This document shows, piece after piece, positions 1-60,867 of a DNA stretch of 64,000 bases; within the stretch, counting starts at the first letter, position 1, and every line of letters begins with the position of its first letter. The DNA lies in contig OZ024744.1 of NCBI GenBank assembly GCA_964016885.1, positions 85,560,001 to 85,624,000 on the forward strand, read 5' to 3'. The position numbers and the translations under genes were made by a program. A model generated the notes under the pieces. The model ran no database searches, had not been told where the DNA came from, and saw only the letters and a program-made list of their open reading frames with translations. The DNA is from Eledone cirrhosa. Its lineage: Eukaryota.

Positions 1-1249
1 ATCTGACTCGGCGTAACTTACAGACCTCGTTGGATTATTTATTAATAATGTACTGTATAGAAAAATGCCAGAGATGACGGGAGGTTTATATCGTCACGAT
101 ATGTTGCTTTTAATTGAAAACCATAGCAATAGTGATATTATTAGGAAAAGAAAATCCATAATACAATTTTTCAACAACTACAATCTTAAGTTAGAAATAG
201 AAAATAACTAGAAAATCGTTAACTTCTTAGATGTAACTTTAAACCTTAGCACCGGCCTTTACTATCCTTTCCATAAAATTAATGAAAATTTAAATTATGT
301 AAGTTTCAATTCCAAGCATCCTAGAAGTATTAAAAACACTATTGTCAATAGTGTCCAACAACGCATTTGACGAATCTCCGCTAATAAAAATACTTTTGAT
401 GATAAGGCAGAATATTATAATGAAGCCTTACACTGAGGAGGATACTCAAATAGAATTAAATACATAGATAACAATAACATGACATATCATCCTAGTATTC
501 CAAACAAAAAAACTAGAACTAGATATATTATTTGATACTCTCCCCATTCTCATTAAGCGTTAAAACACCTTTAGCAAAGCTATTCTTTAAAGCACTAGAT
601 AAATGTTTTCCTAAAACCCACAGATACCACTCTATTTTTAACAGACACACTATAAAACTATCCTACTCAACTACTATGAACATAGCACAAAATATAAATA
701 GAATTAATAATAGAAACTTAAATTTAAACCCTAACCAAACTAACCAAAATAGCAATATAATATTTCTAACAACAATACTCAGAATAATGGTACCGTTCTG
801 AACAACAATACCTCTAGTAATTGTAACTGTAGAATCAAATCAAACTGCCCTTTACAAAATAATTGTTTAGACAAAAACATAGTTTATAAATGCACAGTTA
901 AAACTAGCGACAAAATATTTAACTATGTTGGTGCCACTTCAACAAAATTTAAAGAACGCTTGAATAACCATAATCATACTCTTAGAAGATATGATAAAAA
1001 ATCTTCTACTTCACTTTCACATCTTATATGGGATTTAAAAGAAAATAATATAGAATATTCAATATCTTGGAGAAAGATTTCGAAGTACCTGCATACCGCA
1101 TTACGGCATTATCGAGATTCTGTAAATTGTGTATCGAAGAAATTTGTGATATAATTAACTGTCAAAACTCTATTAATCTCAGAACAGAATTATTTTCTTC
1201 TTGCAAACATCGCCAAAATTCCACGTTCAGAACTATTTTTAATTTATAA
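1..1249 (+). mobile_element. Decayed Penelope-like element: RT C-terminal part and GIY-YIG endonuclease (stops/frameshifts)
   Basis: Translatable fragments VNFLDVTLNL, HRYHSIFNRHTIKLSYSTT, CNCRIKSNCPLQNNCLDKNIVYKCTV, YVGATS..FKER..NH, CKLCIEE..LRTELFSSCKH are typical PLE motifs. Confidence 0.85.
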
Positions 1250-2298
1250 TATCCCTATAAACCTTCAAAATCTTAAAAAACTTAAAATGTAAATTTTTAA
1301 AAATATTTTTAATATTTTAATATTTTAATATTTTTAAATATTTTTAATATTTCAGAAATGTTTAATACCTCTAATATTTATAATATTTTTTATATATATA
1401 TTTAATATTTTAATTTCCTACATCATTTTAATTCTGGCATTATTTTTAATTCCGACATTATTTTTAATTCCGACATTATTTTTAATTCCGACATTCTTTT
1501 TGTAAGGACACCCCTATAAATATATTTTAGATGTAGATTGATAATCTTGAAATGACGTTCTGAAAATGTATCCTCTTTAAGATAGTTCTTCGAAAATCAC
1601 ATTACATTTTCCTCTCTCTTTTTGTTATCCAAACATTCACACATCTTTCGACTAAAATGATGGATCTCATACAAAATAATATATAATTTTTTTCTCTAAT
1701 TTTAATGGTTAACAAACAAAATTGCAGTTATCTTTCCTTTCTCAATCGTTACAAACATATTTCTCTCAATCGTGCAGTTTTTGAATCCACAAATGATTCT
1801 ACTCTCACAACTTGAACCACCTATTTTTTAAGTAAAATACAAATTTAAAATCCTTCGTAACTCATATTTGATATATAAACAATTAATACATACGCAATTT
1901 ATTAACATATATATAGATATCTATATACATATAATCTATCCAAATGTTAGAAGATAAAAATACTTACAACCATAATTCTTCATATAATCTAATTGATTAT
2001 ATATACAAAATATTATAAGTCATAATATATAAGTAACAAATCTTTTCCCCCAACGTAAATTCTAGCCCTTCCTTCTTTCTCTTCTTTCCTACGGTTACAA
2101 TAACTTATCATATTTAAGTTTTCCATAGCGTCTAAAATAACGTTTTTTTTTCAGCCATTTTACATAAACCTCATTTGCATACTCATCTTAATAATTTGAA
2201 ATATCTGACTTTTTTCTCTTCCCTTCACTTTCAAGGGATAACTTGAACCGTTAAGGTATATTATCCTTGGTTATGTCAAATATTTATAAAACATTTTG

Positions 2299-2920: not shown

Positions 2921-3258
2921 GTTTTTCGAATATTAATAATAACATTCGATTCGTTCGCAATTTTGCAAACAAACCTCAATTTTATAGCCATGTCAGGAGA
3001 ATGAACACTTCATTCTTGGTCTTATGTGGGCATGCGAACAGAACTGCAGACACTAATGTTTCTGGGTATCACCCTTCATCAGTACAGCTCAGCCATTTAT
3101 CGCTCGTATACAGGAAACTGACTGGCCAGTCTGTTGATATGCAAGTCTGGCTGATCAGTGGATTTGCTAATATGCAGATCTGACTGATCAGCCAGTCTGC
3201 TAATATGCAAATCAAGCCGATCGGTCCCTGTGTATTTTTGAAAATAGCATATATTTTC
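2921..3258. mobile_element. Rearranged partial copy of the ~438-nt HHR (retrozyme-like) unit; 2921-3090 on minus, 3091-3258 on plus
   Basis: Sequence match to 27385-27843 and 51567-52008; HHR on minus strand at 3041-3090. Confidence 0.8.
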
Positions 3259-4151: not shown

Positions 4152-6870
4152 GCCTGCCCGTCCGACCAGTGGGATGGCGTCATCGTATGGCTAAAATACC
4201 AACGTGCTGTGACCAGCGGCGCCGAATGGCGGCTGACACACTGATCGATGAAGGTGATCAAGGTGATATATCTTGACTTCATGAATGAGTTTTTCTTGTC
4301 CCAACTTGTCCTTGCACCAACGAGACATCAGAAGAACATTCCGGATCTAGTGTTTAGTAACTACACTAACACTATACATAATATTACAGTGGAAAATACC
4401 CTTCTCTCAGACCATGACATGGTTCTTTGTAACCGGAGATTCCACCAGCCGAAAGCTAATCCCAGGGCCCTCTCTCCAGCCCACCCATTTGATAACATGG
4501 ATCTCCACAATGCCAACTGGGATGCAATTATGAACGAACTATCACATGTTGACTGGTCTTTAACACACGTGCACACTTCCACCAACATCAAAACATCTTG
4601 GCAGATCTTTGTAGACACTGTCACAAATATATGTACAAAATACACCCCGCCAAAACCTGTGAAAAAAACCAAGTGCGGTATCTCCCAAAACAAAAAAACA
4701 ATTATCAGAAAAAGAAAAAGAAAAGGAAAAAGAAAAAGAAAAAGAAAAAGAAAAAGAAAAAGAAAAAGAAAAAAGAAAAAGAAAAAGAAAAAGAAAAAGA
4801 AAAAGAAAAAGAAAAAGAAAAAACAAAAATTGTAATACACTAAAATACTGCCAACAGCAACACATACATTCAATGGCTATCACCCTGCTTGAGTCAAAAA
4901 TATAATCTCCAGCAATGTATGATGACCATCATCAATAACCAGAGAGTATCTGAAGAGAGGTGGGCCATTGAGAAAATCAAACTCAACCCCAAAGTGTTCT
5001 TCTCATTCGCTAAAAAACACAAGGTCACCGTCTCCACTGTTGGCCCCTAGTTGATGAAAATGGACTCTCCAGGACAATGCCAAAACCATGGGCGAGATAC
5101 TGCAGAAACAATACTGCTGTTTTCAGCAACCCTGATATGGCCGATCTGGGCCGTATCAGTGATATTAACCCCCAACACGCTATACCAGACATAACGTTTG
5201 GCGCCCCTGATGTCTTAGCGGCAATAAACGAAATTAAACACAATCCAGCAGTATGCGCCGACAGGTTCCCTGCTTGTATCCTGAAGGTGTGTCGACACCA
5301 ACTTGCAACTCCTCTTGCTAATCTGTGGAGGAACTCACTGGACACTGGCTATATTCCTGAAAACTTTCTGTTCAAGTCCGTTATCCCAGTCTTCAAAAAG
5401 GGAAATAAGTTCCTTGCAGTGAGCTACCGTTCGATCGCACTCACCTCTCGTATTATCAAGGTATTTGAGAGGGTGGTGAGATCACGAATAACCCACTTTC
5501 TTGAAAGCAACGGCCTGCTGAACTCCAACCTACATGGATTCCGTAATGGAAGGGACTGCCTAACGCAGCTCCTGCATCACTTTTACGATGTTTTGAGAGC
5601 CTTGGGAAACAGCTCCAACACTGATGTCATCTACCTTGATTTCAGCAAGGCCTTCGACAGGGTTGATCATAAGATTCTACTGAAAAAACTATCCAATGTT
5701 GGTGTCTCTGGAAGGTTACTACAGTGGATCAAATGTTTCCTGACAGGCAGAACCCAGCATGTTGTAGTCGAAGGAGTAAAATTAAGCCCTGCCAAAGTCA
5801 GCAGTGGCGTCCCACAAGGCACTGTGTTGGGCCCACTTCTTTTCATCATCTACATTAATGACATTACTGGCATCATCAAACACAGCAACATCAGAATCTT
5901 CGCAGATGATTCCAAGCTCCAAATGGTCATCAATGAGGTGGGTGACCGGACTTGCCTTCAGTCAGAACTACTGGCTGTTATCAAATGGGCAGAGATGAAT
6001 AATATGCTGTTGAATGAGGATAAATTTGAACTAATCCACTTTGGAAAAAAGGATGCCCTGAAACTACCATACTCTCTTCCTTCGGGTGTAACTCTAGTGG
6101 CTTCCAATAACATCAGAGACCTGGGAGTAATTGTGGACAACAATATAAGCTGGGCCACTCATATAAACAGCAAAGTTGATATGGCCCGCAGAATGTGTTC
6201 CTGGATTCTCAGAACTTTCCAGTCGAGAGATATCCATACTGTTGTCCTTCTCTTCTCCACTTTTGCCCGACCCCACCTTGAATACTGTTGTCCACTGTGG
6301 TCACCCCACACGAAGCAAAGTATCATGAAAGTTGAAGCACCCCAAAGGTCAATTACAAAAAAGATAGATGGCATGACAGGCCTTGACTATTGGGGTCGAT
6401 TAGAAAAGCTCAAACTTTATTCTCTTCAACGTCGCCGCGAGCGCTACATTATCTGTATGATGTGGAAAATATTCCATCAGCTTTGCCCAAATGATGTTGG
6501 CATCACCTTTAGTGTACACCCGCGGCTTGGGCCCCGTGCTATCCGCCCATGACAAAAATCTCACTCTCATCACATAACAATACAGCACAATTATTTCACC
6601 TCAATTGGACCTGCACTCTTTAACATTACACCAAGACACATCAAAGCAGAGACAGACCCCATCAAGTTCAAGAAGTCTTTGGATAAATTCCTTCAAGAAT
6701 TCCCGGATAAGCCTCCGATACCCGGATATGCCTCCGTAAACAATAACTCTCTGCTCGAGTGGGCCATGGTGCCCAAACACTAATTTGTAAGACTTCGCCA
6801 GGTGGTGCTATTAAGTTAGACATGGCCTCGGCCAATACTGGCCGAAACCTATCAAAGTTATCAAAGTTAT
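4146..6870 (+). mobile_element. CR1/L2-like (jockey-group) LINE ORF2, 5'-truncated, containing an (AAAAAG)n expansion
   Basis: Endonuclease tail (DLVFSN..LSDH); RT ORF downstream; 3' end repeat ..cctatcaaagttatcaaagtta before (AT)n. Confidence 0.85.
5077..6552 (+). pseudogene. Reverse transcriptase domain of a CR1/L2-like LINE
   Basis: YLDFSKAFDRVDH, SGVPQGTVLGPLLFIIYIND, FADDSKL, RPHLEYCCPLWSP, YSLQRRRER. Confidence 0.9.
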
Positions 6871-16548: not shown

Positions 16549-17284
16549 TGTTATAGATAAAAGATATGAAATGAGATTTAAAATCTGTTAAAAATTGGAA
16601 GTGAGGCTGGAAAAAATAACGGCATAAAAATAAAAACATAAAAATGAATAAATGACAATATATAGCAATATAGAGAAAGACATATGTGTACATATATATG
16701 CACACACGTACACACATTCAGATAAAAGGAAAATATATATATATATAGATGTATACATATATACATGCAAACACACACATATATATACACAAACATACAT
16801 GTACACGGACATATAATATACATATGCATATATGTACACACACACACACATATAAAAACATATACAGACATATGCAAATACTTATACACACTCACACATA
16901 TAACATAAATATATATATATACATATACATGCATATATACATATATATCATATATTGAGTTAGAAACTCAAAATAGTCTTTTACAATTAAATAGCTCAAA
17001 GAAGGGAATGTTTCCGAGCCGTGTAATATAATTGAATATATGAGAGGGATGAACACAGATACAAATATACATGTGTTCGTACTGTAAATGACCAACTTAG
17101 CTAGGTTGAGAAAATACTAATTTAAAACAATATGGTTTTCCTGCCACGATTTAAAGTAATAAATCAATAAAAATAACAAACCTATATTGGGCAACTGCCG
17201 TTTGATACCCGGACAGATATAAATCTGTTTCGCAACACGAACACACACACACATATGTCTGTATATAAACGAAAAACTTAATTA

Positions 17285-18400
17285 CATACACAAGGGCTCG
17301 TGCCACCCTCCTACTGGTTTTAGAAACTTCGTAAATAACATCAGTACTAGAATCTCTAACCTCTCCTCTAATAAGGCTATCTTTGAGAGAGCGGCACCCT
17401 ACTATAACACTGCGTTAGCTAACAGCGGCTTCTCGCAACCAATTACTTTCTTCCCGACTAACAACAACAACAATAAGAAAAGAAATTGTAACAATAAACA
17501 AACTATCTGGTTCTCTCCTCTCTTCTCACTCAACGTTAAAACTAATTTAGGAAGAAATGTTTTAGCCCTCTTAGATATACACTTTCCCATAGGTCACAAA
17601 TACTGCTCCATCTTTAACAGACACAGAGTAAAACTAAGGTACTCCTGCGCTAAGAATATGAAGGCCCACATTACCAACAGTCCTAAGTTCGGCATCCCAC
17701 CAGGATGCTCTTGCCGAAAGCCAGAAGCTTGTCTCCTTCAACAGCAATGCAACACACGCGCTGTAGTTTATGAAGTTGTGGTCACTTCCAACCGACCAAA
17801 TCAACCACAGAAGGTCAAATCCTATGTGGGTATGGCAGAGGGCCGGTTTGAGGAACGCTTCCTGAACCATCAATAGACCTTTAGGTACTCGGACAAACGA
17901 TCATCCACGAAACTCACGAGTCACTTATGGTCCCTGAAGGACTCAGGTATAGACTACTCCATTCAATGGAAAGCTATCACTAAGTCCAAGCCATACGCAA
18001 GGAGTAATCTGTCTTGTGGACTGTGTATTGAAGAAAGGATAAATATTCTAAGGAGATTACGCAATAACGATAGCCTAAATTCAAGGTTGATATCTTCACA
18101 CGTTGTCCACACGTCTGGAAACACCTCTTGCATAACTATAAAGCTCCGGATTGAATTAGAACAACATTATAATTTTCTAATCAACTCGAACATCTTTTCC
18201 GAACTTTCGCAGTTATCTCCCTTACACCTTTTGCCCGTGGTTATGTATCGCTTGAGTGAAGTGACCGTTTCTGCGCATGCGCGTTCATACGGTTATTCTT
18301 CCTGTTTCGTTTAACCATGACCAGTCCGAGCTGAAGATCCGCTAAGGTGAAATAATTGTTCTCGGTATGGTGAACTAACTGTTGTGTTACTACTTCTACC
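17285..18400 (+). mobile_element. Penelope-like element 3' fragment (GIY-YIG) with pseudo-LTR
   Basis: IWFSPLFSLNVKTNLG, CSCRKPEACLLQQQC..VVYEV..SYVGMAEGRFEERFLNH, CGLCIEE; HHR downstream. Confidence 0.85.
18326..18365 (+). ncRNA. Minimal type I hammerhead in PLE pseudo-LTR
   Basis: ccgag-CTGAAGA-tccgctaaggt-GAAA-taattg-TT-ctcgg. Confidence 0.75.
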
Positions 18401-27384: not shown

Positions 27385-27843
27385 TGCCAACACAAGAGCA
27401 AGAATGTAGTGTTCATTCTACTGACATGGCTATAAAATTGAGGCTTGTTTGCATAATTGCAAACGAATCGAATGTTATTATTAATATTCGATAAACTCAG
27501 ATTACATTTAGTGTATTCAGCCATGTAGAGCGAACATTTTCTTTATTATTTGAATTTGGCAAAGCCGGCCATTTATCGGTCGTATACAGGAAACTAACTG
27601 GCCAGTCTGCTGATATGCAAATCTGGCTGATCAGTGGATCTGCTAATATGCAGATCTGACTGATCAGCCAGTCTGCTAATGTACAAATCAGGCCGATCAG
27701 TCACTGTGTATTTTTGAAAATAGCATATATTTTCACTAGCTCTGAGAGTTTGGCATGTGAACAGTGAGCTGTACTGATGAAGGGTGATACCCAGAAACAT
27801 TAGTGTCAGCAGTTCTGTTCATATGCCAACACAAGAGCAAGAA
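27385..27843 (+). mobile_element. Terminally redundant 439-nt HHR-containing non-coding unit (retrozyme-like)
   Basis: tgccaacacaagagcaagaa at both 27385 and 27824; HHR at 27766-27815. Confidence 0.8.
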
Positions 27844-28173: not shown

Positions 28174-29942
28174 AGAATTAATAACAGAACACACTCACTG
28201 TTTGGTTGGTTTTCGCTTTTCGCTTCTGTGTCTTTTATATCGGTAATCTAATTTATTCGGTCCTCAATGTTGCCATTGACTAACCAACGGTCAAAAATAA
28301 TACAGATACAATATAGACACAAACACATATATATATTTTATCATAAATCTTTCGTTGCACATCTGCAACATCGTCAGTGGTGCTATTGTTTCCTCCCGTT
28401 GCATTGTATGTCTACGCCATTTTTATTTAATCTTGTCTATATACTTATTTATTTATTTGCTTGTTTGTTTATTTTATTTTGTCTTCTTTGCGCATGCGTT
28501 TGCGTGTGTGTATAGTGTTTTGTTTGATGTGTGTTCGTGATTGGGTGACTAGTGTGTGTTTATATGTGTTTGTTGTTATTGTGCTTGTGTATGTATTTAT
28601 TTATTTATTTATCTATTTATTTATTTATTTATACTTCTCTTAGGTCAGTGTTGTTTGTTGGGGTGTTGTTGTTATTCCATTCATTTTTTCTGTTTAGTCT
28701 TGGCCTTCTAAGTTCTATTTCACTGGCCTCTCTGATTTGCCTATCTGCTGGGTCATTTCTATGTTTAGATATTATTCTAATTTCTATGTTGTCTATGTTA
28801 CCATCGTATTGTTGTCTGGCATGTTCGTATAGTACTGACCCGTTTTTTCGTCCTTTTAGTTCCTCCCAGTGTTGGTCTATCCTTTCACCTATGCTACGAG
28901 CTGTCTCACCTATGTATGTTGTTGTCATGTTTCTGCAAGTACCCTCTGTACATCTTATGCTATAGACTACGTTTCTAGTTTTACAGTTAATCCGGGGGTT
29001 TACCTTACATATGATACATTTCCTATTAGTACAGTGGGTTTTCTTAAAAGGGTAGGTTTTGCTGATCAGGGATTTTATGGTGGTTCCTGGCTTTTCTACC
29101 ACCTTAATCTTTAAGTGGGTGTTTCTCAGGGTCTTTCTACACTGGTTAGCTAGTTTCCCTCCAGGGGTAGCGCCCACAAACATGACACTCTGGTATCTCT
29201 GGTTGTCGTACCATGAGGTGGCTTTCCCTATCTTATGTCTAGCCCTATCTAAGCTATTCCATGATTTTCTACTGTATAATGGGCAAATTCCTTTCATGTC
29301 CAGTTCTATGAGGGTCTTATACTTCTCCATGGCTCCTTCATATACTCTGACTCTGTCTCTTTGGTTGTAGCCAGAGAACTGCATGCGGTTGATGAAATGT
29401 TGGATGTGTCTTTCCATTTCTGTTGGATCGCACATGCGGGACACATTCTTCATCACTCGTACCAAATCTGCGATCAGAATATTAAACTTAGCACTACTGG
29501 ACATTGCTGAGTTTTTGAGTATAAGGTATTTGGAGGCCATGGGTTTAGCATAGTGTGAGTGGAGAATTTGGGCTCTCTCGTCTATAGTGTTAATCCAGAG
29601 TTCCGTGTCTAATACAGGTAGTCTATAAATAAATAAATATATAGACAAGATTAAATAAAAATGGCGTAGACATACAATGCAACGGGAGGAAACAATAGCA
29701 CCACTGACGATGTTGCAGATGTGCAACGAAAGATTTATGATAAACTATATATATGTGTTTGTGTCTATATTGTATCTGTATTATTTTTGACCGTCGATCA
29801 GTCAATGGCAACATTGAGGACCGAATAAATTAGATTACCGATATAAAAGACACAGAAGCGAAAAGCGAAAACCAACCAAACAGTGAGTGTGTTCTGTTAT
29901 TAATTCTGGCAATATTACACAAATATTTCCCTCCCCAAGTAT

Positions 29943-29950
<8 letters not shown>
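28174..29950 (-). mobile_element. 5'-truncated Penelope-like element with inverted pseudo-LTRs (28174-28456 / 29626-29907)
   Basis: ORF 28629-29625: LPVLDTELW, HYAKPMAS, CTNRKCIIC..CKTRNVVYSIRC..YIGETARSIGERIDQH (GIY-YIG); HHR CTGACGA-tgttgcagatgtgcaac-GAAA at 28340-28381 (-) and 29700-29741 (+). Confidence 0.92.
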
Positions 29951-29984
<34 letters not shown>

Positions 29985-29996
<12 letters not shown>

Positions 29997-31423
29997 ATGT
30001 AAATATAATGTATTTTGCAATACACTTTATGCTTAATTAAAAGCATTTTGAAGACCGTAAGCTATTGTTTTAAAGTAGTGACAAATTCACTCACTTCGAT
30101 CTCAGCAAACAGGAGGAGATAAGCCGACATGACATGTTTCGCTTTTGTTGAAGCTTATCAAGGCCAACTACCCCGCCCGTCTGCTGAGATCAATGATGTT
30201 ATATTCTTATAGAAATCTAGTATATAATCAGGAGCTGATTATGCAGAGCGGTTGTTGGTCAGGCAGAAATTAAAAATTAGAATTGTAGCTCTGAAATAGC
30301 AATATATATATGGATGTAAATATAATGTATTTTGCAATACACTTTATGCTTAATTAAAAGCATTTTGAAGACCGTAAGCTATTGTTTTAAAGTAGTGACA
30401 AATTCACTCACTTCGATCTCAGCAAACAGGAGGAGATAAGCCGACATGACATGTTTCGCTTTTGTTGAAGCTTATCAAGGCCAACTACCCCGCCCGTCTG
30501 CTGAGATCAATGATGTTATATTCTTATAGAAATCTAGTATATAATCAGGAGCTGATTATGCAGAGCGGTTGTTGGTCAGGCAGAAATTAAAAATTAGAAT
30601 TGTAGCTCTGAAATAGCAATATATATATGGATGTAAATATAATGTATTTTGCAATACACTTTATGCTTAATTAAAAGCATTTTGAAGACCGTAAGCTATT
30701 GTTTTAAAGTAGTGACAAATTCACTCACTTCGATCTCAGCAAACAGGAGGAGATAAGCCGACATGACATGTTTCGCTTTTGTTGAAGCTTATCAAGGCCA
30801 ACTACCCCGCCCGTCTGCTGAGATCAATGATGTTATATTCTTATAGAAATCTAGTATATAATCAGGAGCTGATTATGCAGAGCGGTTGTTGGTCAGGCAG
30901 AAATTAAAAATTAGAATTGTAGCTCTGAAATAGCAATATATATATGGATGTAAATATAATGTATTTTAAATGTAAATATAATGTACTTTAAAACAATAGC
31001 TTACGGTCTTCAAAATGCTTTTAATTAAGCATAAAGTGTATTACAAAATACATTATATTTACATCCATATATATATTGCTATTTCAGAGCTACAATTCTA
31101 ATTTTTAATTTCTGCCTGACCAACAACCGCTCTGCATAATCAGCTCCTGATTATATACTAGATTTCTATAAGAATATAACATCATTGATCTCAGCAGACG
31201 GGCGGGGTAGTTGGCCTTGATAAGCTTCAACAAAAGCGAAACATGTCATGTCGGCTTATCTCCTCCTGTTTGCTGAGATCGAAGTGAGTGAATTTGTCAC
31301 TACTTTAAAACAATAGCTTACGGTCTTCAAAATGCTTTTAATTAAGCATAAAGTGTATTGCAAAATACATTATATTTACATCCATATATATATTGCTATT
31401 TCAGAGCTACAATTCTAATTTTT
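29985..31423. repeat. Tandem array of a 317-bp HHR unit (3 copies plus a partial), then ~1.4 inverted copies; non-LTR retrozyme-like
   Basis: aaatataatg recurs at 30001, 30318, 30635 and 30952; orientation flips at about 30984. Confidence 0.92.
31187..31280 (+). ncRNA. Type I hammerhead ribozyme, U3-A8 core variant (minus-strand copies at 30098-30191, 30415-30508, 30732-30825)
   Basis: gatctcagcagacggg..ggcc-TTGATAA-gctt caacaa aagc-GAAA-catgtcatg-TC-ggct..cctgtttgctgagatc. Confidence 0.85.
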
Positions 31424-31463
31424 TATATATATATATATATATATATGTGTATGTATGTATGTA

Positions 31464-35865: not shown

Positions 35866-36429
35866 TTATAATACTGGACTGTAATACGAACGGCTTCAAC
35901 TATACGAACTCTTGAAAGTCAGCAGTTGACATAATCTTGTAATCTTGTATCAATAATGACGGTAATATATATATATATATGTGTGTCTGTGTGTAAGTGA
36001 GTAGCGTGTGTGTTTGTTTGTATGTATGAATGTTGCTGTGTGCGCGCGTATGTATGCGCGTGTGTGTATGTCGTATGTATAAATGTCAATAAGTGAGTTT
36101 TTTTTTTTTTTTTTTTTTTTCGCGGGGACATAGAAATAATCGGGCTGGATGCCCGATCGCGCAGTTAAACCACTGGGAGTGAAGAACCCCTAGCCCTTGT
36201 CAGGGCATTTTTCTAGAAGGCATCTCAGGAAACTGGGTTAACTCCGACATAACACCTGCGGCTCAGTAGTTACCGATGATCTTTTCTTCTTTTCGGGTTA
36301 TAGCTACTGTCGCTCAGAGAGTGGGATTGGCTCAGTGCACAGTATTTCCTCACTTTAAAAATATTCGTCACGCACAGGCATTGCATGAGTGCATTAATAA
36401 TTATTAATAGTGTATTATTATTGTCACTC

Positions 36430-38723
36430 GGTTTGGATGGCCTGCCCTACGAGCTTTACGTAAATATGCCAGACTTGTTCCCCGAACTCCTCGAAGCACT
36501 CTACTGCAACTGGCAGCAGAATGGGAGTATTCCCAGTTCTGTGAGCAGGGGAGTGGTGACGCTGATAAGGAAAGACGAGAACAAGAGGGATACATTAGAC
36601 AACTTCAGGTCCATAACTCTGCTCAACACAGAGTTTAAGATTTTGGCCAAGGTGTTAGCAAAGAGATTGGCGCTTGTCGTCAAGGATTTGGTTGGGGAGG
36701 CGCAAACTTGCGCAATCCCAGCCAGGTCCATACACGACAATCTCCACCTCATGCGATACATCATAGAGAGGGTAGGGTGTAAACCTGGCTTCGGTGGGGC
36801 ACTGATCAATTTAGTCAATCGAAAGCATTCGATAGGGTCGACCATCGGTATCTGGAGTTTGTCCTCAAAGCAGCTAGCTTCGGCCCTGTCTTTAGAAGCT
36901 AGATCGCTGCAATGCACAGCGGCGCACACTCGGTGGTCAAGGTTAATGGCCACCTCTCGGAACCATTTCGGCTGTCCCGATCGGTCCGTCAAGGGTGCCC
37001 TCTCTCTTCCCTTCTGTACGTATTGACTCTGGAGCCTTTACTGCGGAAGCTGGAGCTGTTGCAGGGCATACCGCTCGAACCGGGGCGTGGAAAGGCGGTG
37101 TCGGCTTATGCGGATGACATCACCGTGATGGTGTCGAACACCTCAGAAATTGAGGTGATCGGCACCTTATTGAAGGAATATGAAAGGTTAACAGGAGCCA
37201 AACTTAACCCGGAAAAGTCGGTGGGCTTGCAGCTCGGAACCTGGAGAGGCAAGCCCATGTCGTCCAACAGCGTCGTGGGGCGCTGGACGGACGGACGGAC
37301 CGGTAAAGTTGTCGGGGTTTGGTTCGGACCAAACCTCCAGGTGGAAAAGAATTGGGACGAGGTAACGAGCAGAGTAGCCAGTCTCACCCAAAAATGGGCT
37401 GGGAGGAAGCTATCACTGAAAGGTCGCACGGAGGTGGCGAATGCGTACATCGCGTCCGTCATCTGCTACCGCCTGACCGTCGTGCCTTGCCCCCGTCCGC
37501 GCCTCGTCAAGTTGGAACGGCTCCTCTTCAAATTTTTGTGGAGGGGACAAGTTCCGTTGGTGAGGCGGTCCATCTGCTGCCAGCACCCTCTACGCGGAGG
37601 GCTGGGCCTGCCGTGGCTAATGATGCGCAGACATGCGTTGAGGCTGCGACATCTCCAAATATTCTGCCTCAACGGTGAACAGGTGTGGTCGCCGTTTATC
37701 AGACGGGCCTTTCCGCAGCTCATTTCTTTGACTGGGTTGCAGTCCTAGGTCAAGAAGAGACCGAGATTGGGTGACTGGCACCTGGAATGTTGCCAGGCAC
37801 TCACTGCCCTCTACCAAACGGGCAATTCGATCAGTAGAACTTCCACTCTCGAGTTTTATAGAGGATTATTGGTGGGCAAGTGCGATGACGCACTCGGAGA
37901 AGCTTTGGGCCTCGACGAAGTCGAACTGACCAGTCTGTACCGGAGGACTTTTGAGCCGGGGACGATGGACAATTATTCCTCGCTTGGACAATTATCCTTC
38001 ACTTGGCAGTGCTACCGGGGGGGGGGGGGGGGGGGGGCACTGCCGGTTCGGGATAAACTCTACAGGCACGGAAGTGCTGTCAGACGGACCTGTCCAAGAT
38101 GCGCACAGAACGACGAAACCGTTCTGCACGCACTTGTCCAATGTCCGTGCATTACTGACTTGTGGAGATATGTCGAACAGCTACTGTTGCGTGTGGAACG
38201 AGTCCGGCTATCGGCCGAGTCCATAGTGAAGATCGATCCACCGCCTTCCTTAGGTCAGGAAGAGCAGGAAATGTTCCTCTGTCTGGTGGCAGTTGCGAAA
38301 GAGGTTATATGGTGGACCAGGTTAAAAGGACTGAAGACAGACACTTTTCTCTTCGGCCAATCCCTCATCAACTTCTTCAAGTTTCACCTGGAAAGGAGGG
38401 TGAGGGTGGAGAGAGAAGTGCTGCCCCCCCCCCAGTACATTTGCCAAAAAGTGGATGAATGTGGCGAGAATGGCTCGTGTGAATGGGCCTACTCTGACCA
38501 TGCGCCTATAGGCTAGCCAACTTGAGGAGATGGGGTGCTCTCTCTGGGTTTCCTAGAAGCGCAGGGTGGTTCAGGATTGGTGGGGTACTCGAGTCACCCC
38601 AGGGTCGTCCACCCCCTATCGGGGAATTTATTTTATTATATTTATGCATAGTTTATTTTATATTTTTATATTTTCATTGTCTTTGTATTGTCCCCTACAT
38701 GTCGGCCCTTGTGGCTAATAAAT
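36430..38723 (+). mobile_element. 5'-truncated L1/Tx1-like LINE ORF2 (RT and C-terminal zinc knuckle), frameshifted
   Basis: GLDGLPYELY, NFRSITLLNTEFKILAK, SVRQGCPLSSLLY, AYADDITV, CPRCAQNDETVLHALVQC; aataaa at the 3' end. Confidence 0.92.
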
Positions 38724-38905
38724 GATTGGCAGTATCGGTAGAGGGTCGGACGCCATGCTTTCCAGCATAGTTACGTCCCTTTACGATCTGAGTTCAAATC
38801 CCGCCGAGCTTGACTTTGCCTTTCATCCTTACGGGGTCGATAAAATAAAGTACCAGTAATGCACTGGGTAATTGCTGGCCTTGTGCCTAAAGTAGAAACA
38901 ATTAT
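38724..38905 (+). mobile_element. tRNA-derived SINE (family A)
   Basis: gattggcagtatcggtagagggtcggacgcc..gagttcaaatcccgccgag. Confidence 0.85.
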
Positions 38906-38999
38906 TATTATTATTATTATTGTTACTATTATTATTACTTTTTTTTTTTTTTTTTTTTTTCCAATTCAATGATGTTCCAGAACAATATAAAAGAGATAA

Positions 39000-41900
39000 T
39001 TGGCAATTTAGGTTCTGGAACAAAAAATATAATTGGCAATAAGGGCAGGGGCCCCAGGTTATCACAGCCTGGGCCCGCTCGTCATTGTGCCATTGTAATA
39101 GAGCCAAACAAGGCATTTAGTCTTGGCTGCTGGAACGTACGGACGCTGCTTGACAGGGATTCCTTGGAGCGTCCTGAACGAAGGACCGCTCTTGTTACAA
39201 AGGAGCTTCGACGTTACGATCTTGACTTCGTGGCTTTATCTGAGACGAGGTTAGCTGGAGATGGTCATCTTACAGAATTTTGTGGAGAATATACATTCTT
39301 GTGGAAAGGAAGAGATGAAGGAACCAGAAGAGAGGCTGGGGTAGGATTTGCTGCTAAGACTGTTCTTGTGAATAAATTAGAAGAATTCCCAGTAGGGATT
39401 AGTGAGCGTCTTATGTCCATGAGAATTCCGCTGGACAAAGGAAGATATGCGACCCTGGTGAGTGTGTATGCTCCAACTATGAATTCTGTCGATGAAGAAA
39501 GTGTCCTTTTACCATGCCTTGAAAGGTGTTTTAAGAAATATCCCTCAGGCAGACAAAGTCATCGCGCTTGGTGACTTTAATGCTAGAGTGGGTAGAGATT
39601 TTAACACATGGAATGTAATTGGAAGGCATGGGGTGGGAAAGTGTAACAACAATGGTATGCTCCTGCTGCAGATGTGTGAGGAGCTGGATCTGTGTGTTAC
39701 CAACACCATGTTCCAACAAAAAAACAAATTCAAGACCACATGGATGCATCCTGCATCTAAGGAATGGCATCTTTTGGACTACATCCTAGTCAGGTAGCGT
39801 GACAGGAAGGATGTGCAGTGTGTTCGTGTTATTCGTGGAGCTGAGTGCTGGACGGACCACCGCCTGGTACGCGCAAAAGTGAAACTAATCACTAAACGTA
39901 AAATCCAGGCTCCTGGTGTTGCCCTGCCCAAAAGATTGAATGCTGCACGTCTTAAGGATAAAATGTGAAGAGGACATTGGAAGAAGAGATGCAGGCTGCA
40001 GTTCTTGGTGAGGATTGGCCGACCCTTAAAAATTCGGTTTATGATGTAGGCAGGCGTGTTCTGGGATTGGTGCAGAGAAAACATCAGGACTGGTTTAATG
40101 AGAATGATGTACATATAGAAGACTTGTTGGCTGATAAGGGGCGTGCTCTGTCACGCTACTTGACGGCAAAACCACAGGAGAGGAATACGTTGCATGAGGA
40201 ACTCAAGAATGTAAAATCACGTGTTAGGCGGAGTCTTTCTCAGATGAAGGATCAGTGGTGGAGTGAGAAGGCTGGTGAGATACAAACTGCGTCAGATTCC
40301 AATAACACAAAGCTGTTGTACAGTCTCTTGCGTGAAGTTTATGGACCGTCTTCTTCTCTGGTGACAGCGCTTCACAGCAGGGATGGCAAAGAACTTCTTT
40401 GTGACTCACAAGGAATTCTACGAAGGTGGAGAGAGCACTTTGATGATCTTTTGAATCAGCCGTCTGTCGTCAGTGAAGATTTCCTCAATCTCATTCCAGA
40501 AAGTCCTGTGAAAGTAGCTCTTGCAGAACCTCCGACGCTTGAGGAGGTTGCAGTAGCTATCCCGAAGCTGAACAGTGGAAGGTCACCAGGTATGGATGGG
40601 ATACATGCTGAGCTCCTACAATATGGTGGTGAGAGACTTCTCCAACATCTACACTTGGCAGGACCACGTTTGGCAGGATATGGGCTAATGAATCCGTACC
40701 TGAGGACTGGAGACATGCAGTAATGGTGGTCTTGTACAAGGGAAAAGGTAACAGGAATGATTGTTGGAACTACAGAGGTATATCATTGCTTTCTGTCGTA
40801 GGGAAAGTTTTATGTAGGGTGCTTCTGGACCGTCTGCTGACACACATTGCAGATTGTGTTCTTCCTGGAAGTCAATCTGGTTTTTGTGCTGGACGCGGCA
40901 CTACTGATATGATCTTCTCAGCTAGACAGCTCCAGGAGAAGTGCATGAAACAAGGTTTGGATCTGTATCAGGTTTTTGTCGATCTGACAAAAGCTTTCGA
41001 TACTGTTAACAGATATGCATTATGGAAGGTTCTCGAGAAACTTGGTTGCCCTGATAAGTTCCTTGCTTTAGTTAGGTCTTTCCATGACGACATGAAGGCT
41101 TGGGTTAATGTCGGAGGTAACATGTCAGAGCCTATCTTAGTAAAAAATGGAGTGAAACAGGGGGATATTCCAGCACCGACCCTGTTTGCCATATACTTTG
41201 CAATGGTTTTCTGTATTGCATTCAGGAATTGCGAGCATGGTGTTTACATCCGATATCGAACCTCAGGCAGCATATTTAACATCAGGTGCTTTGCTGCAAA
41301 GACAAAAGTATTTACATCAATCATAAGAGACCTCTAGTATGCAGATGATTGCGATCTTGTAGCGCACACAGAGAGTGATATGCAGCACATTTTGAATGCA
41401 TTTTCTGACGCTTGCACTGCCCTAGGCTTGACTGTCAGTCTCAAAAAAACCGTCGTCATGTACCAACCTGCCCCTGGTAAGCAGTACACTGAACCAAATA
41501 TCTATGTGTATGGTAAACGACTTGGAGTGGTTGATCAGTGTGTCTATCTGGGAAGCACTGTCAATCGATACAGCAACCTTGACAGTGAAATCTCACTAAG
41601 GATTAGGAAAGCAAGTGATGCTTTCGGAAAGCTAGAAAGGCGACTCTGGGGTCGGCGAGACATATGCAGGAGGACAAAGGTAAAGGTGTACAAGGCATGT
41701 GTGCTCTCTTGTCTTCTTTATGCCTGCGAGACCTGGGTCACATATCGACACCATCTTAAGCAATTGGAGCGTTTCCATCAGATGTGTCTCAGACAGATCC
41801 ATGGCGTTCACTGGAGGGACCACATCAGTTGGTGTCGAGATTTTGGAAAACTCTATGTGTGACAGTATAGAAGCTCTTGTGCTTAAGCAACGACTCCGTT

Positions 41901-42625
41901 GGAGTGGTCACCTTGCAAGGATGAAGGATTCTAGAATACCAAAACAACTCTTTTATGGAGAGTTGCTTAAAGGAAAACGACCGCCACATAAACCAAAAAA
42001 GAAGTATAAGGATTCCTTGAAAGCCTCTTTGAAAGACGCTAACATCTCTGCTGATATATGGGAAAATATTGCTGCTGAATGTAATAAATGGAGAAAGACT
42101 GTATATGAAGGAAAAGTTGCCTTCGAGGCATCTCGAATCGCATACGAGAAAGTAAAGCGGGATGTGAGGAAGGGCATTGCTGTTGCACTTCCAGACAGCG
42201 AGGGTCCTCCTATAGTGCTGCCATGCAGCGTCTGTGCGAGACTCTGCCTAAGCAAAGCTGGACTCGAAAGTCATCTTCGCAGTCATAAAGTAAGACCAGT
42301 GGTTGACTACCAGGCTGCTGTTGGAGATGCTACTCATCATGCTTGCCAAACATGTGGTAGAGAATGTAAATCAGCAGGAGGGCTCAAGCGACATGCAAAA
42401 GTACATGAACTCCAACCACAGCCGGCTATTCCCAGTGAATATTTTGGTTGCCGACCCTGTGCAAGACATTTTAGATCATTGGCTGGGCTAAAAAGCCACA
42501 TTCGACGGCAGCGCTGTTAGTTGTTATCGTGTGTGTGTGTATAGATATGTTTATTTGTGCGCGTGTGTGTGTATATATATATGTATATTATTATTGTTGT
42601 TGTTGTCATTATTATTATTGTTGTA

Positions 42626-47650: not shown

Positions 47651-48674
47651 TATATATATATATATATATAGTAATAATAAATATAAAGACCAAAATCCGA
47701 AGAGGGCTCGATAAGGATTGTATATATGCATAAGTACATATAAACCTGCAGAACAAGTAGTTATTATTAGTACAGATTAAATTTTAAGGGAAGTATTTAT
47801 GCTTTCACCCTATACGGGATCTTCTGAAATACAGTTTCAGAAGATTTAGTATAGGGTGAAAGCAGAAATTCTTTGCTTAAACTTTAATTCATACAAGTAA
47901 AAAAAAAAATATATATATATATATACACATATATATATATATATATATATATAAACAAATAGTAGAAAGGAAAAAGATAGTCAGTAGAAAACATCGAAGA
48001 TATTTTTTCAGTGAAATATCAAAACATTAATTTATTTACAATACCGGTTTCAGCATTATATGCATTGTCATTTGCGGATATGCAGAATATTGTTAAGTTG
48101 CATATTTGTTCAAATAGTGATAATAATAATAAAAAAATCTAAAAATGAGAAGAAAAATTAATTTTCACATACATGTTCATTCAGAGAAGAGAGTTTATTT
48201 CTCTGTCCATCTCTGCTAATAGCTTGGTTGTGACTGGAGAGGGTAGAAGAAGGGAGGGGAGAAGGATGAGGCAGGGTATAGTAGTGGTAGCAGAGTGCTG
48301 TGAGAGACCCTTTGAAGAGCTGATACAAGGTTTGGCTGGGATTGGTTTGAAAGGGCAGGTGACCTTAGAGTTGACCGGCGGTGGGTTGGGGGGGGGGTAT
48401 TGCTTCTAAAACTATCTATCTTGGTATTTTTTTTAGAAGAAATCATCAACATTGACCTTGTTTTTTGGCCTCAAAGAAGATTCAGATTTATTAAAATACT
48501 AATTCCATCCCTAGCAGAAATTGCAGATTTAGCGGAATGGGGAAAATTTTGCCACAAAGAGGGGTTCAGAACCACTGGAATTAATTTTCAGCAGAAACAT
48601 CCAGATTTAAGGGAATGTAAAGTATTTAGTTTGACACCTGAATGCTTCCATTTATCCGATATATATATATATAT

Positions 48675-50043
48675 ATATATATATGAATGTATATATAGTG
48701 TATTTGCAATACACTGTATGTTTAATTAAAAGCATTTCGAAGACCTTACGCTATTGTTTTAGAGTAGTGACAGTTTCACTTACTTTAAATTTTCAGAAAA
48801 CAGGGGAGATAAAGCTGACAGAGCTCTGTTTCGTACTGATTGGTACTTATGAAAACCAAGTACTCAACCTGTTTGCTGAAAATCATGAATGTTAGATTCT
48901 TATAGAATTCTAGTAATAATCAGGAACTGATTATACAGAGTGGTTGCCGGTCAAGCAGATATTGAAAATTAGAATTGGTGCTCTGAAATATATATATCGC
49001 TATATATATATGAATGTATATATAGTGTATTTTGTAATACACTGTATGCTTAATTAAAAGCATTTCGAAGACTTTACGCTATTGTTTTAGAGTAGTGACA
49101 GTCTCACTTACTTTAAATTTTCAGCAAACAGGGGAGATAAAGCTGACAGAGCTCTGTTTCATACTGATTGGTACTTATCAAAGTCAAGTACTCCACCTGT
49201 TTGCTGAAAATCATGAATGTTTTATTCTTATAGAATTCTAGTAATAATCAGGAATTGCTTATACAGAGCGGCTGCCGGTCAAGCAGAAATTGAAAATTAG
49301 AATTGGTGCTCTGAAATAGCGATATATATATGAATGTATATATATTGTATTTTGCAATACACTGTATGCTTACTTAAAAGCATTTCGAAGACCTTACGCT
49401 ATTGTTTTAGTGTAGTGACAGTCTCACTTACTTTAAATTTTCAGCAAACAGGGGAGATAAAGCTGACAGAGCTCTGTTTCGTACTGATTGGTACTTATCA
49501 AAGCCAAGTACTCCACCTGTTTGCTGAAAATCATGAATCTTTTATTCTTATAGAATTCAAGTAATAATCAGGAATTGCTTATACAGAGCGGTTGCCGGTC
49601 AAGCAGAAATTGAAAATTAGAATTGGTGCTCTGAAATAGCGATCTAGAATACTTGGCTTTGATAAGTACCAATCAGTACGCAACAGAGCTCTGTCAGCTT
49701 TTCTCCCCTGTTTGCTGAAAATTTAAAGTAAGTGAGACTGTCACTACACTAAAACAATAGCGTAAGGTCTTCGAAATGTTTTTAAGTAAGCATACAGTGT
49801 ATTTCAAAATACACTATATATACATTCATATATATATCGCTATTTCAGAGCACCAATTCTAATTTTCAATATCTGCTTGACCGGCAACCGCTCTGTACAA
49901 TCAGTTCCTGGTTATTACTAGAATTCTATAAGAATCAAACATTCATGATTTTCAGCAAACTGGTGGAGTACTTGGCTTTGATAAGTACCAATCAGTACGA
50001 AACAGAGCTCTGTCAGCTTTATCTCCCCTGTTCGCTGAAAATT
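48675..50043. repeat. Second tandem array (320-327 bp unit, 3 copies plus ~1.2 inverted) of the U3-A8 HHR family, diverged from 29985-31423
   Basis: tgaatgtata recurs at 48684, 49011 and 49331; inversion at about 49648; shared blocks such as aattaaaagcattt.gaagacc and aaattagaattg..gctctgaaatagc. Confidence 0.9.
49949..50041 (+). ncRNA. Type I hammerhead, U3-A8 variant (minus copies 49438-49530 and 49118-49210 keep the core; 48790-48882 and the ~49650 copy are mutated)
   Basis: ttttcagcaaac..ggct-TTGATAA-gtac caatca gtac-GAAA-cagagctctg-TC-agct..gctgaaaa. Confidence 0.85.
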
Positions 50044-50545
50044 TCGTTTGGAATCATCGGATCATTAGCAATGTTTGTACATATAATTAACCTCCTATAT
50101 TATACGAGAATTGTACAATAATTAAAATTAAAATTAAAAGCACAGAGTGGAATACAGGCAACAGATAATACAAGGGAATAGTCTAATAATTAAAGAGGCA
50201 TTGAGAAAGAATGAAGACACTAGCAGTATATATTCAAGCGTGTAGAGAGTGCACTTGTATTAGTCATATATATGAGAAGGAAAAAAGCAAAGGTATTAGG
50301 CATATATAAATACTGTATGACATAAAATACAAGCACTTTAAGCGAATATGTTAGTGTATTAAAATTAAGGTGGATGTAATGTAATGATTGTTTCTGTAGT
50401 GATCAAATGTGTATGTGTTGAGAGTATCAAAGTTATTAACTTTTCCATTACATATGTTAAATTATATTTTAGTTAATGTTTATGTTGAATGTTTTTAGTT
50501 AGTTATAGCAATGGATTGTAAATTGGTCTTATTATATTCTTATCC

Positions 50546-51483: not shown

Positions 51484-52008
51484 AAAATTTTGCTTCACAT
51501 GGCTGAATACAATAAATCTAATCTGAGTTTTTCGATTATTAATAATAATCAAACTGTCAGAGCTAGTGCATAATTTCAAACGAATCGAATGATATTATTA
51601 ATATTCGAAAAACTCAGATTACATTTATTGTATTCAGCCATGTAAAGCGAAATTTTCTTTTTTATTTGAATTTGGCTAGCCGGCCATTTATCGCTCGTAT
51701 ACAGGAGACTGACTGGACAGTCTGCTGATATGCAAATCTGGCTGACCAGTGGATCTGCTAATATGCAGATCTGACTGATCAGCCAGTCTGCTAATATGCA
51801 AATCAGGCCGATCAGTCACTGGGTATTTTTGAAAATAGCATATATTTTCACTAGCTCTGAGAGTTTGGCAGGTGAACAGTGAGCTGTACTGATGAAGGGT
51901 GATACCCAGAAACATTAGTGTCTGCAGTTCTGTTCGCATGCCAACACAGGAGCAAGAATGAAGTGATCATTCTACTGACAAGGCTATAAAATTGAGGCTT
52001 GTTTGCAT
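51481..52008 (+). mobile_element. 437-nt HHR unit (different permutation of 27385-27843) with an inverted 5' segment (51481-51566)
   Basis: Unit runs from tgcat (51567) to tgcat (52004); HHR at 51881-51930: gagctgta-CTGATGA-agggtgataccca-GAAA-cattagtg-TC-tgcagttc. Confidence 0.82.
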
Positions 52009-59044: not shown

Positions 59045-59052
<8 letters not shown>

Positions 59053-60794
59053 ATACTTTGGGAGGGTCATGTTGCCAATAAGAAACACACGCACCAGTTG
59101 CTTTCACTTCAATTTATTATATATTTATAAATTTATAAATTTACAAATCTACAAACTTATAAATTTCTGGTTGGTTGGTTGGTTCCACAACCAGATAGTT
59201 GTTTATATATATAGTCATAGTCCTTTCGTCACACACTCTGTGACCTCTTCAGTGACTGGGGATTCCTTTCTTCGTTTCTGTGCCTTTTCTTTCTTCTATC
59301 CTACGCCATTTTGTTTCTGTGTGTGTGTTGTGTGCTCAGTTTGCGCATTATGCCAAACCCATGACTTCCAAACATCTGATCCACCGAAACTCGGCCATTT
59401 CGGACCATACCAAAATCAACATACTGATTGCGGATTTGGTACGGGTGATGAGAAATGTGTCCCGCATGTGCAACCCCGAAGAACTAGAGAGACACATACA
59501 ACACTTCATCTACCGTATGCAGTTCTCTGGCTACAATCAGAGAGATAGAATCAGAGTGTATAAAGGAGCCAGAACCAAATGGGAAAAAATGGTAAATAAT
59601 GACATAAATGGGACCTGCCCCTTGTATAGGAGCAAATTTTGGAATAGAATAGAAAGAACTAGGAACAAGGCCAATAAAATAAACTCATGGTATGATAGCA
59701 ATAAATACCAGAGTGTAATGTTCATCAATACAACCCCTAGAGGCGAACTAGCCTACAAATTTAGAAGGGCCCTAAATAAACATAACCTCAATATTAAGAT
59801 AGTAGAAAGACCTGGTACCTCCGTAAAAACACTTATTAGCAAGACATACCCGTTCCAAAGACCCTCATGTATAGATAAGAAATGTATAACTTGTAAAATA
59901 AGCCCCCATATTAACTGTAAAACTAGAAATGTAATGTATAGCATAAGATGTACTGAAGGACAATGTAGAAACAAAAATATAGTGTACATAGGTGAGACAG
60001 CTCGTAGTATAGGGGAACGAATAAATGAACACTGGCGAGACCTCCAAGATAATAAAGAATCATCTGTGCTCTACCAACATGCTAAGATAGAACACAGGGG
60101 TAGATTAGAGAGCATAGAAATAAAAATAGAATCCACGCACAGAAAAGACGCAATGTTTAGGCAAATTACAGAGGCAGTAAGCATAAAAGAATTAAAACCA
60201 AAATTAAATAGAAAATATGAGTGGAACAGCAACATCAGAACTTACAATTAAGGACAAAATGAAAACACACACACACATAGAACAAACAACTTACAATTGA
60301 AAACACACACAAAATGAAAACACACACAGGACAAAATGTAAACACACACACACATAGAACAAACAACCAACCAACAATAAATAAATAAACAAATAGAAAA
60401 ATGAACACAAACACACACAGACACCCGGATGTGGCACATGCGCAAACTGAGCACACAACACACACAGAGAAACAAAATGGCGTAGGATAGAAGAAAGAAA
60501 AGGCACAGAAACGAAGAAAGGAATCCCCAGTCACTGAAGAGGTCACAGAGTGTGTGACGAAAGGACTATGACTATATATATAAACAACTATCTGGTTGTG
60601 GAACCAACCAACCAACCAGAAATTTATAAGTTTGTAGATTTGTAAATTTATAAACTTATAAATATATAATAAATTGAAGTGAAAGCAACTGGTGCGTGTG
60701 TTTCTTATTGGCAACATGACCCTCCCAAAGTATAACAATATCGGTTTCAACACACGATTTCAGATAAAGAATCTTGCTAAACAAATTCAGAAAC

Positions 60795-60800
<6 letters not shown>
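59045..60800 (+). mobile_element. 5'-truncated Penelope-like element with inverted pseudo-LTRs (59045-59348 / 60438-60741)
   Basis: Open frame ~59346-60251: [58 protein letters not shown]; flanked by (AT)n. Confidence 0.93.
60529..60573 (+). ncRNA. Minimal type I hammerhead in PLE pseudo-LTR (inverted copy at 59213-59257)
   Basis: agtca-CTGAAGA-g(gtcaca gagtg tgtgac)-GAAA-ggac-TA-tgact. Confidence 0.82.

Positions 60801-60867
<67 letters not shown>

Follow-up and report, generated by a model that had tools for sequence, protein, structure and literature searches.

U3-A8 hammerhead arrays of a probable non-LTR retrozyme in Eledone cirrhosa: likely core-pair exchange and insertion anatomy

We analysed a 64,000-nucleotide stretch of the Eledone cirrhosa genome (the window) and found that one of its repeat arrays, array B (48675-50044; three units in tandem followed by an inverted arm), is very probably a single insertion of a non-LTR retrozyme, i.e., a non-coding Penelope-like element. 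Its hammerhead ribozymes have a U3-A8 core pair. U3-A8 is a tolerated, pairing-selected state of lineages, fixed subfamily by subfamily. From comparison of related units, it would be a working alternative to C3-G8, and the core pair has likely been exchanged two to three times within the superfamily. The element class, the U3-A8 variant and dimer-competent stems are already in print, and array B is a fresh example of them. What we add is the switching of the core within one family and the anatomy of its insertions.

Two related arrays in the window

Arrays A and B both have a direct and an inverted arm. A descriptor scan for UUGAUAA, GAAA and GUC placed the hammerhead on the minus strand in direct units and on the plus strand in inverted arms. 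The features are as follows.

48659..48697, unstranded: (TA)n target of array B, on the side of its short 3′ end
48675..49646, minus strand: direct arm of array B, a tandem of 3.0 units, each of about 320 nt; successive units start at intervals of 327 and 320 nt
48813..48857, minus strand: hammerhead of array B unit 1, core broken to UUCAUAA (G5 lost)
49141..49185, minus strand: hammerhead of array B unit 2, core kept, with a stem I mismatch and G-U at the stem II base
49438..49530, minus strand: predicted long distal helix with the unit 3 hammerhead at its tip
49461..49505, minus strand: intact type I hammerhead of array B unit 3, with U3 at 49501 and A8 at 49496; cleavage is predicted after C17 (49465)
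49647..50044, plus strand: inverted arm of array B, 1.2 units
49655..49699, plus strand: hammerhead of the first inverted copy of array B, GCAA in place of GAAA
49974..50018, plus strand: intact type I hammerhead of the array B inverted arm
29985..30967, minus strand: direct arm of array A (subfamily A1), 3.1 identical 317-nt units, U3-A8
30984..31426, plus strand: inverted arm of array A, 1.4 units, ending in a tail of about 30 nt and then (TA)n

The array B direct arm has its RNA-sense 3′ end at 48675, next to (TA)n and about 143 nt past the cleavage site. The inverted arm stops 30 nt past the cleavage site, and the usual tail and (TA)n are missing there. No open reading frame of 120 aa was found within array B. 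An earlier note on this DNA had described the core as unchanged throughout the array. This is true of three of the five ribozyme copies and fails in unit 1 and the first inverted copy. Two copies (49461-49505 on the minus strand and 49974-50018 on the plus strand) match the subfamily consensus ribozyme. The type I arrangement (Y3-U4-G5-A6-N7-R8-A9 and G12-A13-A14, A15.1-U16.1 and H17, with three helices of which helix I is open) was found in three of the five copies and in all 13 subfamily consensuses described below.

Units of 48675-50044 and 29985-31426 share 81% identity, array B being the diverged homolog of array A that the same note described. The copies within array A (29985-31426) are identical to one another. 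Reading both arrays bore out the differences listed for the paired regions: GGCC/GGCU versus GGCU/AGCU in stem I, GCUU/AAGC versus GUAC/GUAC in stem II, CAUG-U-CAUG (array A) versus CAGAGCUCUG (array B) in stem III, and CAACAA versus CAAUCA in loop II. Between the A1 and B1 consensuses, 5 of 12 stem pairs are altered on both sides and all 12 still pair.

Rfam returned no match at gathering thresholds across the 64-kb window. Hammerhead_HH9 (RF02275) aligns with the unit 3 hammerhead over the whole model and shares a CAAAAA-like loop II, but this alignment is weak and below threshold (17.8 bits, E 0.17; gathering 52). Given also its shorter proximal stem I and U3-A8 core, the Eledone ribozyme is not a member of that family. 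Loop II, which in canonical metazoan motifs makes a tertiary contact with loop 1, stays CAA-rich in the arrays.

The palindromic stem III of array B had been proposed to allow cleavage as a dimer. A self-complementary helix does make a dimer possible, but this is not special to array B: the stem III of array A is likewise palindromic apart from one central U, and helix III is self-complementary in 13 of 13 subfamily consensuses. The helix could thus act in a monomer or in a dimer. Predicted monomer and dimer energies are -1.8 and -20.1 kcal/mol for B1, +1.0 and -10.5 for A1, and +6.0 and -7.5 for G. The B monomer hairpin is among the more stable ones predicted (-1.8 versus +1.0 kcal/mol in A), and folding suggests that B likely forms helix III alone and that G likely cannot. 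When 49438-49530 is folded in isolation, the lowest-energy structure is predicted to be inactive (-39.6 versus -37.0 kcal/mol, tertiary contacts being outside the model). The palindrome and the dimer model have already been described for this class (PMC4209133, PMC3088659, PMC7229834). Ribozyme prediction is no guarantee of activity, as only one of nine Xenopus retrozyme dimers is reported to be cleaved in vitro (Li et al. 2026, bioRxiv 10.64898/2026.07.22.740005).

Some further observations concern the window and the array B family. A dispersed 33-nt triple repeat at 3125-3213, 27606-27703 and 51721-51818 contains ATGCAAAT, which we take to be the octamer motif, and the same 8-mer lies in a 12-nt insert in subfamily D. 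The array B family is present in contigs of two of four sequencing runs from one study, which has no bearing on expression. For window positions 49433-49530, run X4 gave one B5-like ribozyme contig with a depth of about 400, at least 10 times that of the other listed pieces; we attach no biological meaning to this depth.

Core pairing across the superfamily

Searches seeded with diverged units showed that the unit belongs to a wider superfamily, with at least 20,954 members in the 3.0-Gb genome (conserved-block matches; control 0). The units are dispersed, non-coding and 310-327 nt long. Two other genome searches gave 1,605 and 910 candidates, of which 40 each were scored, yielding 78 and 176 scored matches. 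From 265 distinct units we built 13 subfamily consensuses, with 14 units unassigned and one singleton dropped. The samples are top-scoring or first-listed matches and do not amount to a census, and it was a U3-A8 pattern that recovered the small A and B subfamilies.

Ten subfamilies have U3-A8 (A1, A2, A4, B1-B5, D and E) and three have C3-G8 (C1, C2 and G). Positions 3 and 8 are Watson-Crick paired in all 13 consensuses and mismatched in none. The earlier note had set its reading against a family-wide C3-G8 consensus with U3-A8 only sporadic; U3-A8 is instead fixed in 10 of the 13, though not family-wide. A B-type pattern with positions 3 and 8 left free had 2,235 matches, and the first 100 listed comprise 96 with U3-A8, four with a single change and none with C3-G8. 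The G pattern had 4,517 matches, the first 100 listed all being C3-G8, and G accounts for 77 of the first 100 superfamily units listed. Each core state has a young subfamily, A1 (U-A) and G (C-G) both lying 0.6% from consensus. A, B, D and E all have U3-A8 while sharing only 58-84% identity outside the ribozyme.

Across the genome, the U3-A8 pattern had 5,712 matches (177 for the reversed control) and the same pattern with C3-G8 had 32,611 (control 50). The abundant C3-G8 families behind the latter were considered as kin of the array B unit and rejected, as none of 30 sampled ribozyme regions was homologous. At loci L091-L120, an unrelated and far commoner C3-G8 hammerhead family, which dominates the 32,611 matches, often occurs as inverted pairs 40-50 nt apart.

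Individual subfamilies have features of their own. Subfamily G (loci L139 and L231-L290) forms long two-armed arrays of near-identical 308-311-nt copies. Its ribozyme has a minimal helix III (CGCG), a GUA cleavage triplet and U-U at the helix II base, and is predicted to be an obligate dimer. C2 (L144, L113 and other loci) has a GUU triplet, and position 7 varies, being G in C1 and mostly U in C2. One of 25 C1 copies (locus L166, about 1180-1480, minus strand) has U3 plus A8 inside this C3-G8 subfamily.

The earlier note proposed examining covariation across aligned copies. By tree simulation, with unconstrained change simulated on the tree of the remainder of the unit, and by pair counts, it is significant. 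Five or more double-sided stem changes between A1 and B1 arose in none of 20,000 simulations. Among the 13 consensuses, 160 of 162 counted cells are paired. With five omitted II.1 cells restored, six are unpaired against a simulated mean of 29 (P = 0.0008 for six or fewer, 0.003 for eight or fewer); four of these six are the helix II base in C2, D, E and G, which the 160/162 count excludes. Simulation also gave P = 0.0007 for the invariance of seven core nucleotides and P = 0.004 for a 3-8 pair that is Watson-Crick in every tip yet switched. Among ten real copies, double-sided changes affect 7 of 13 pairs, the 3-8 pair being one of them. This was matched in 0 of 500 shuffles, a test inflated by kinship, and slid controls had zero or one double-sided change.

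The evidence from the A/B clade alone is modest. Retention of 12 of 12 pairs there has P = 0.03 (0.054 for A1 versus B1), and U3-A8 shared by the two arrays is uninformative by itself, because an unconstrained pair would survive the A-B distance with P = 0.74. The earlier argument from two arrays that U3-A8 is a selected family trait and not decay is therefore weak as framed, and the trait holds only per subfamily, C1, C2 and G being C3-G8. The part that rejects decay stands, given the 96 U3-A8 cores among the first 100 listed and the covariation controls, which were passed. Broken cores in two of five array B copies are what one would expect if U3-A8 were decaying in a satellite that is inactive and spreads through unequal crossing over, but we consider this origin very improbable. 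The dispersed insertions have fixed ends and tails, the U3-A8 subfamily A1 is young at 0.6% divergence, and covariation and core conservation, like the 96 cores and the simulations, already contradict it. Selection would act on replicating lineages and not on every genomic copy, which is why consensus stems covary while single copies decay. We are thus confident, from these comparisons, that the ribozyme is maintained by selection and predict that it cleaves. Selection acts on the 3-8 pairing; a preference for U-A is not demonstrated.

How often the core changed depends on the tree. A tree of 61 ribozyme-masked copies has three core-state changes and rejects a C-G clade (p-AU 0.004). In a tree of the 13 consensuses, a single switch is not rejected (p-AU 0.19), and the long branches of D and G may attract. 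Trees of the half-units upstream and downstream of the ribozyme disagree with each other, and each needs at least two changes. This disagreement, the single switch allowed at the consensus level, and the presence in C of a B-like stem I within a backbone 88-90% like E could all reflect one switch followed by recombination (template switching) in which either the ribozyme or just its 5′ strand passed from one subfamily to another. We regard that account as doubtful, since two or more changes are needed in both half-trees, and stem I types do not travel with core states: B-like stem I occurs in A and B (U-A) and in C (C-G), and D-like stem I in D and E (U-A) and in G (C-G). Less likely still is an advantage of U3-A8 as such, which is one way to read the selected trait of the earlier note; a slower core might, for instance, protect the circle or prevent misfolding. 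The pair is kept across A, B, D and E despite their low identity elsewhere, and in B1, B2, B4 and B5 folding is predicted to become 2.3-3.0 kcal/mol less favourable with a C3-G8 core, but C3-G8 subfamilies thrive, with G both young and the commonest unit sampled. A general role of misfolding in U3-A8 finds no support: with a margin of more than 1 kcal/mol, five of the 13 subfamilies are predicted to fold better with the native core and four with the swapped one.

Insertion anatomy and the RNA template

In two-armed insertions the RNA-sense 3′ ends point outward into (TA)n. These ends fall at two fixed points, about 141-143 nt or 167-174 nt past the cleavage site and thus 26-33 nt apart. Fixed end points were found for 35 of 38 ends in A (22 loci) and 38 of 42 in B (27 loci). 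A short end is paired with a long one in 13 of the 14 two-armed insertions of A and in 10 of the 15 of B. The 5′ junctions are spread over the unit, and just 3 of 40 arms (A) and 2 of 42 (B) have theirs near the cut site. No LTR was found in the insertion maps.

Arms read through the cleavage site repeatedly; the template was therefore a circle or an uncleaved multimer. In seven G arrays, window array A and locus L068, private variants are common to all copies in both arms (permutation p = 1e-4). These shared variants favour one monomer circle as the template, and a circular template seems to us the better-founded choice, held with moderate confidence. Copying from uncleaved linear multimer transcripts of tandem donors, with the ribozyme active but the circle not the template, is fairly unlikely. 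A homogeneous donor array would likewise yield identical copies, but private sets, common to all copies in both arms, differ between insertions, and arms run to more than six units, with starts anywhere in the unit. In published retrozymes, moreover, circles are given as the main RNA form (PMC7229834). Array B itself offers a point in favour of linear templates. It is older, and its copies share variants pairwise (units 2 and 3, unit 1 and the inverted copy, unit 3 and the inverted copy), so a lone circular template does not explain it and later conversion or a mixed template is needed.

Under the circle-based reading, the ribozyme strand would be transcribed and cut after GUC into monomers, which would be ligated into circles. 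Target-primed reverse transcription would then run round the circle from both target ends, the copying into (TA)n microsatellites being carried out by the reverse transcriptase and GIY-YIG endonuclease of an autonomous Penelope-like partner. Cleavage, circles and RtcB ligation are reported for retrozymes of other animals (PMC7229834), and Penelope-like enzymes have been proposed to copy retrozymes from circles (PMC7229834; Li et al. 2026, bioRxiv 10.64898/2026.07.22.740005). The explanation as a whole, a non-coding hammerhead-bearing retrozyme circularised and copied into (TA)n by Penelope-like enzymes, we consider probable.

Penelope-like elements also occur in the window.

59050..60810: 5′-truncated copy of a young Penelope-like family (family at 59256-60251; other copy at L321, C1:301388500-301397000)
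28185..29945: second truncated Penelope-like copy, with an inverted arm, an endonuclease frame at 28629-29744 on the minus strand and 60% aa identity to the young family

By eye, both copies contain a minimal C3-G8 hammerhead, the first at about 60534-60570 and the second at about 29704-29743, and array A sits in (TA)n at the end of the second copy. Further Penelope-like endonuclease frame fragments lie at 753-1154 and 17223-18314, and Pfam made no call on the endonuclease fragments. LINE reverse transcriptase remnants are at 5014-6552 (RVT_1) and 36304-42520.

The young family, which is active and very abundant, is autonomous, with frames to 1,280 aa. It had 39,383 candidates, and the 140 scored have 97-99% aa identity. 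Its insertions in (TA)n likewise have short and long ends (17 and 16 of 33). The tail measures about 55 nt, versus 26-33 nt in the retrozyme, and corresponds to the first part of the family's own open frame. A profile of the unit had no match in six near-full-length copies of this family. As no detectable sequence is shared with the unit, the family represents a candidate class of helper and not an identified partner. No homologous autonomous element or pLTR was found in the flanks of sampled units, and the flanks of the listed D, C and E copies held only further units. Widely spaced ribozyme pairs, considered as candidates for an autonomous element, turned out to belong to long arrays in which the intervening copies have decayed.

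A bolder reading joins core and insertion history. Three separate crossings of a fitness valley between C3-G8 and U3-A8, with no wobble or mismatched subfamily fixed, would be combined with insertions that record twin-primed reverse transcription round one RNA circle, the enzyme being Penelope-like, targeted to (TA)n and under no need to have the terminal sequence of the retrozyme. We offer this only tentatively and think it improbable in its entirety.

Relation to known elements and implications

Non-LTR retrozymes of animals are described as non-coding tandem repeats of 150-450 bp with low GC and one type I hammerhead per unit, which live beside Penelope-like elements (Cervera and de la Pena 2020, PMC7229834; Li et al. 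2026, bioRxiv 10.64898/2026.07.22.740005). The Eledone units are likewise dispersed, non-coding tandem repeats in the 150-450-bp range with a type I hammerhead per unit and GC below 50%. The U3-A8 core with its exchange among subfamilies, and the two-armed anatomy of short end and tail in (TA)n, were not found in those reports, whose supplements may list such variants. Expression and cleavage are reported there; in the Eledone family both are predicted. The 2026 preprint ties retrozymes to pLTRs (Li et al., bioRxiv 10.64898/2026.07.22.740005), and none homologous to the Eledone unit was found in the six Penelope-like copies or the sampled flanks.

The minimal Penelope-like hammerheads of Cervera and de la Pena (2014, PMC4209133) share the U3-A8 covariation, the palindromic helix III region, the dimer model and consensus families rich in compensatory changes; about 1,300 matches to U3-A8 Penelope-type motifs are given for Schistosoma mansoni (PMC4209133). 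That motif has a helix II of 7-8 bp and occurs mostly as single copies, in contrast to the 4-bp helix II, 4-bp helix III and tandem multimers of the Eledone unit. Perreault et al. (2011, PMC3088659) describe several natural ribozymes in which C3-G8 covaries to U3-A8, and they state that cores of this kind are active in vitro; these are scattered examples, unlike the within-family series here. EN+ Penelope-like elements (Craig et al. 2021, PMC8557442) share partial tandems, an inverted 5′-truncated copy, a 30-40-bp tail at one end and a microsatellite bias, but encode a reverse transcriptase and a GIY-YIG endonuclease, whereas the Eledone unit encodes nothing. A literature search of article texts found no paper on repeated C3-G8/U3-A8 exchange within one family, and among papers on twin priming and circular RNA none describes the two-armed anatomy in its title or the start of its abstract.

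Descriptors restricted to C3-G8 would miss about 5,500 motifs in the Eledone genome (5,712 minus the control). With a young subfamily for each core state, A1 with U-A and G with C-G, the cost of U3-A8 can be tested in natural backgrounds. Genomic support for the hypothetical circle-templated mobilisation by Penelope-like enzymes comes from the two fixed 3′ end points, short and long, and from variants common to both arms. Should three crossings and twin-primed copying of a circle both prove true, the superfamily would be a natural series for the evolution of a ribozyme core and for the movement of retrozymes.
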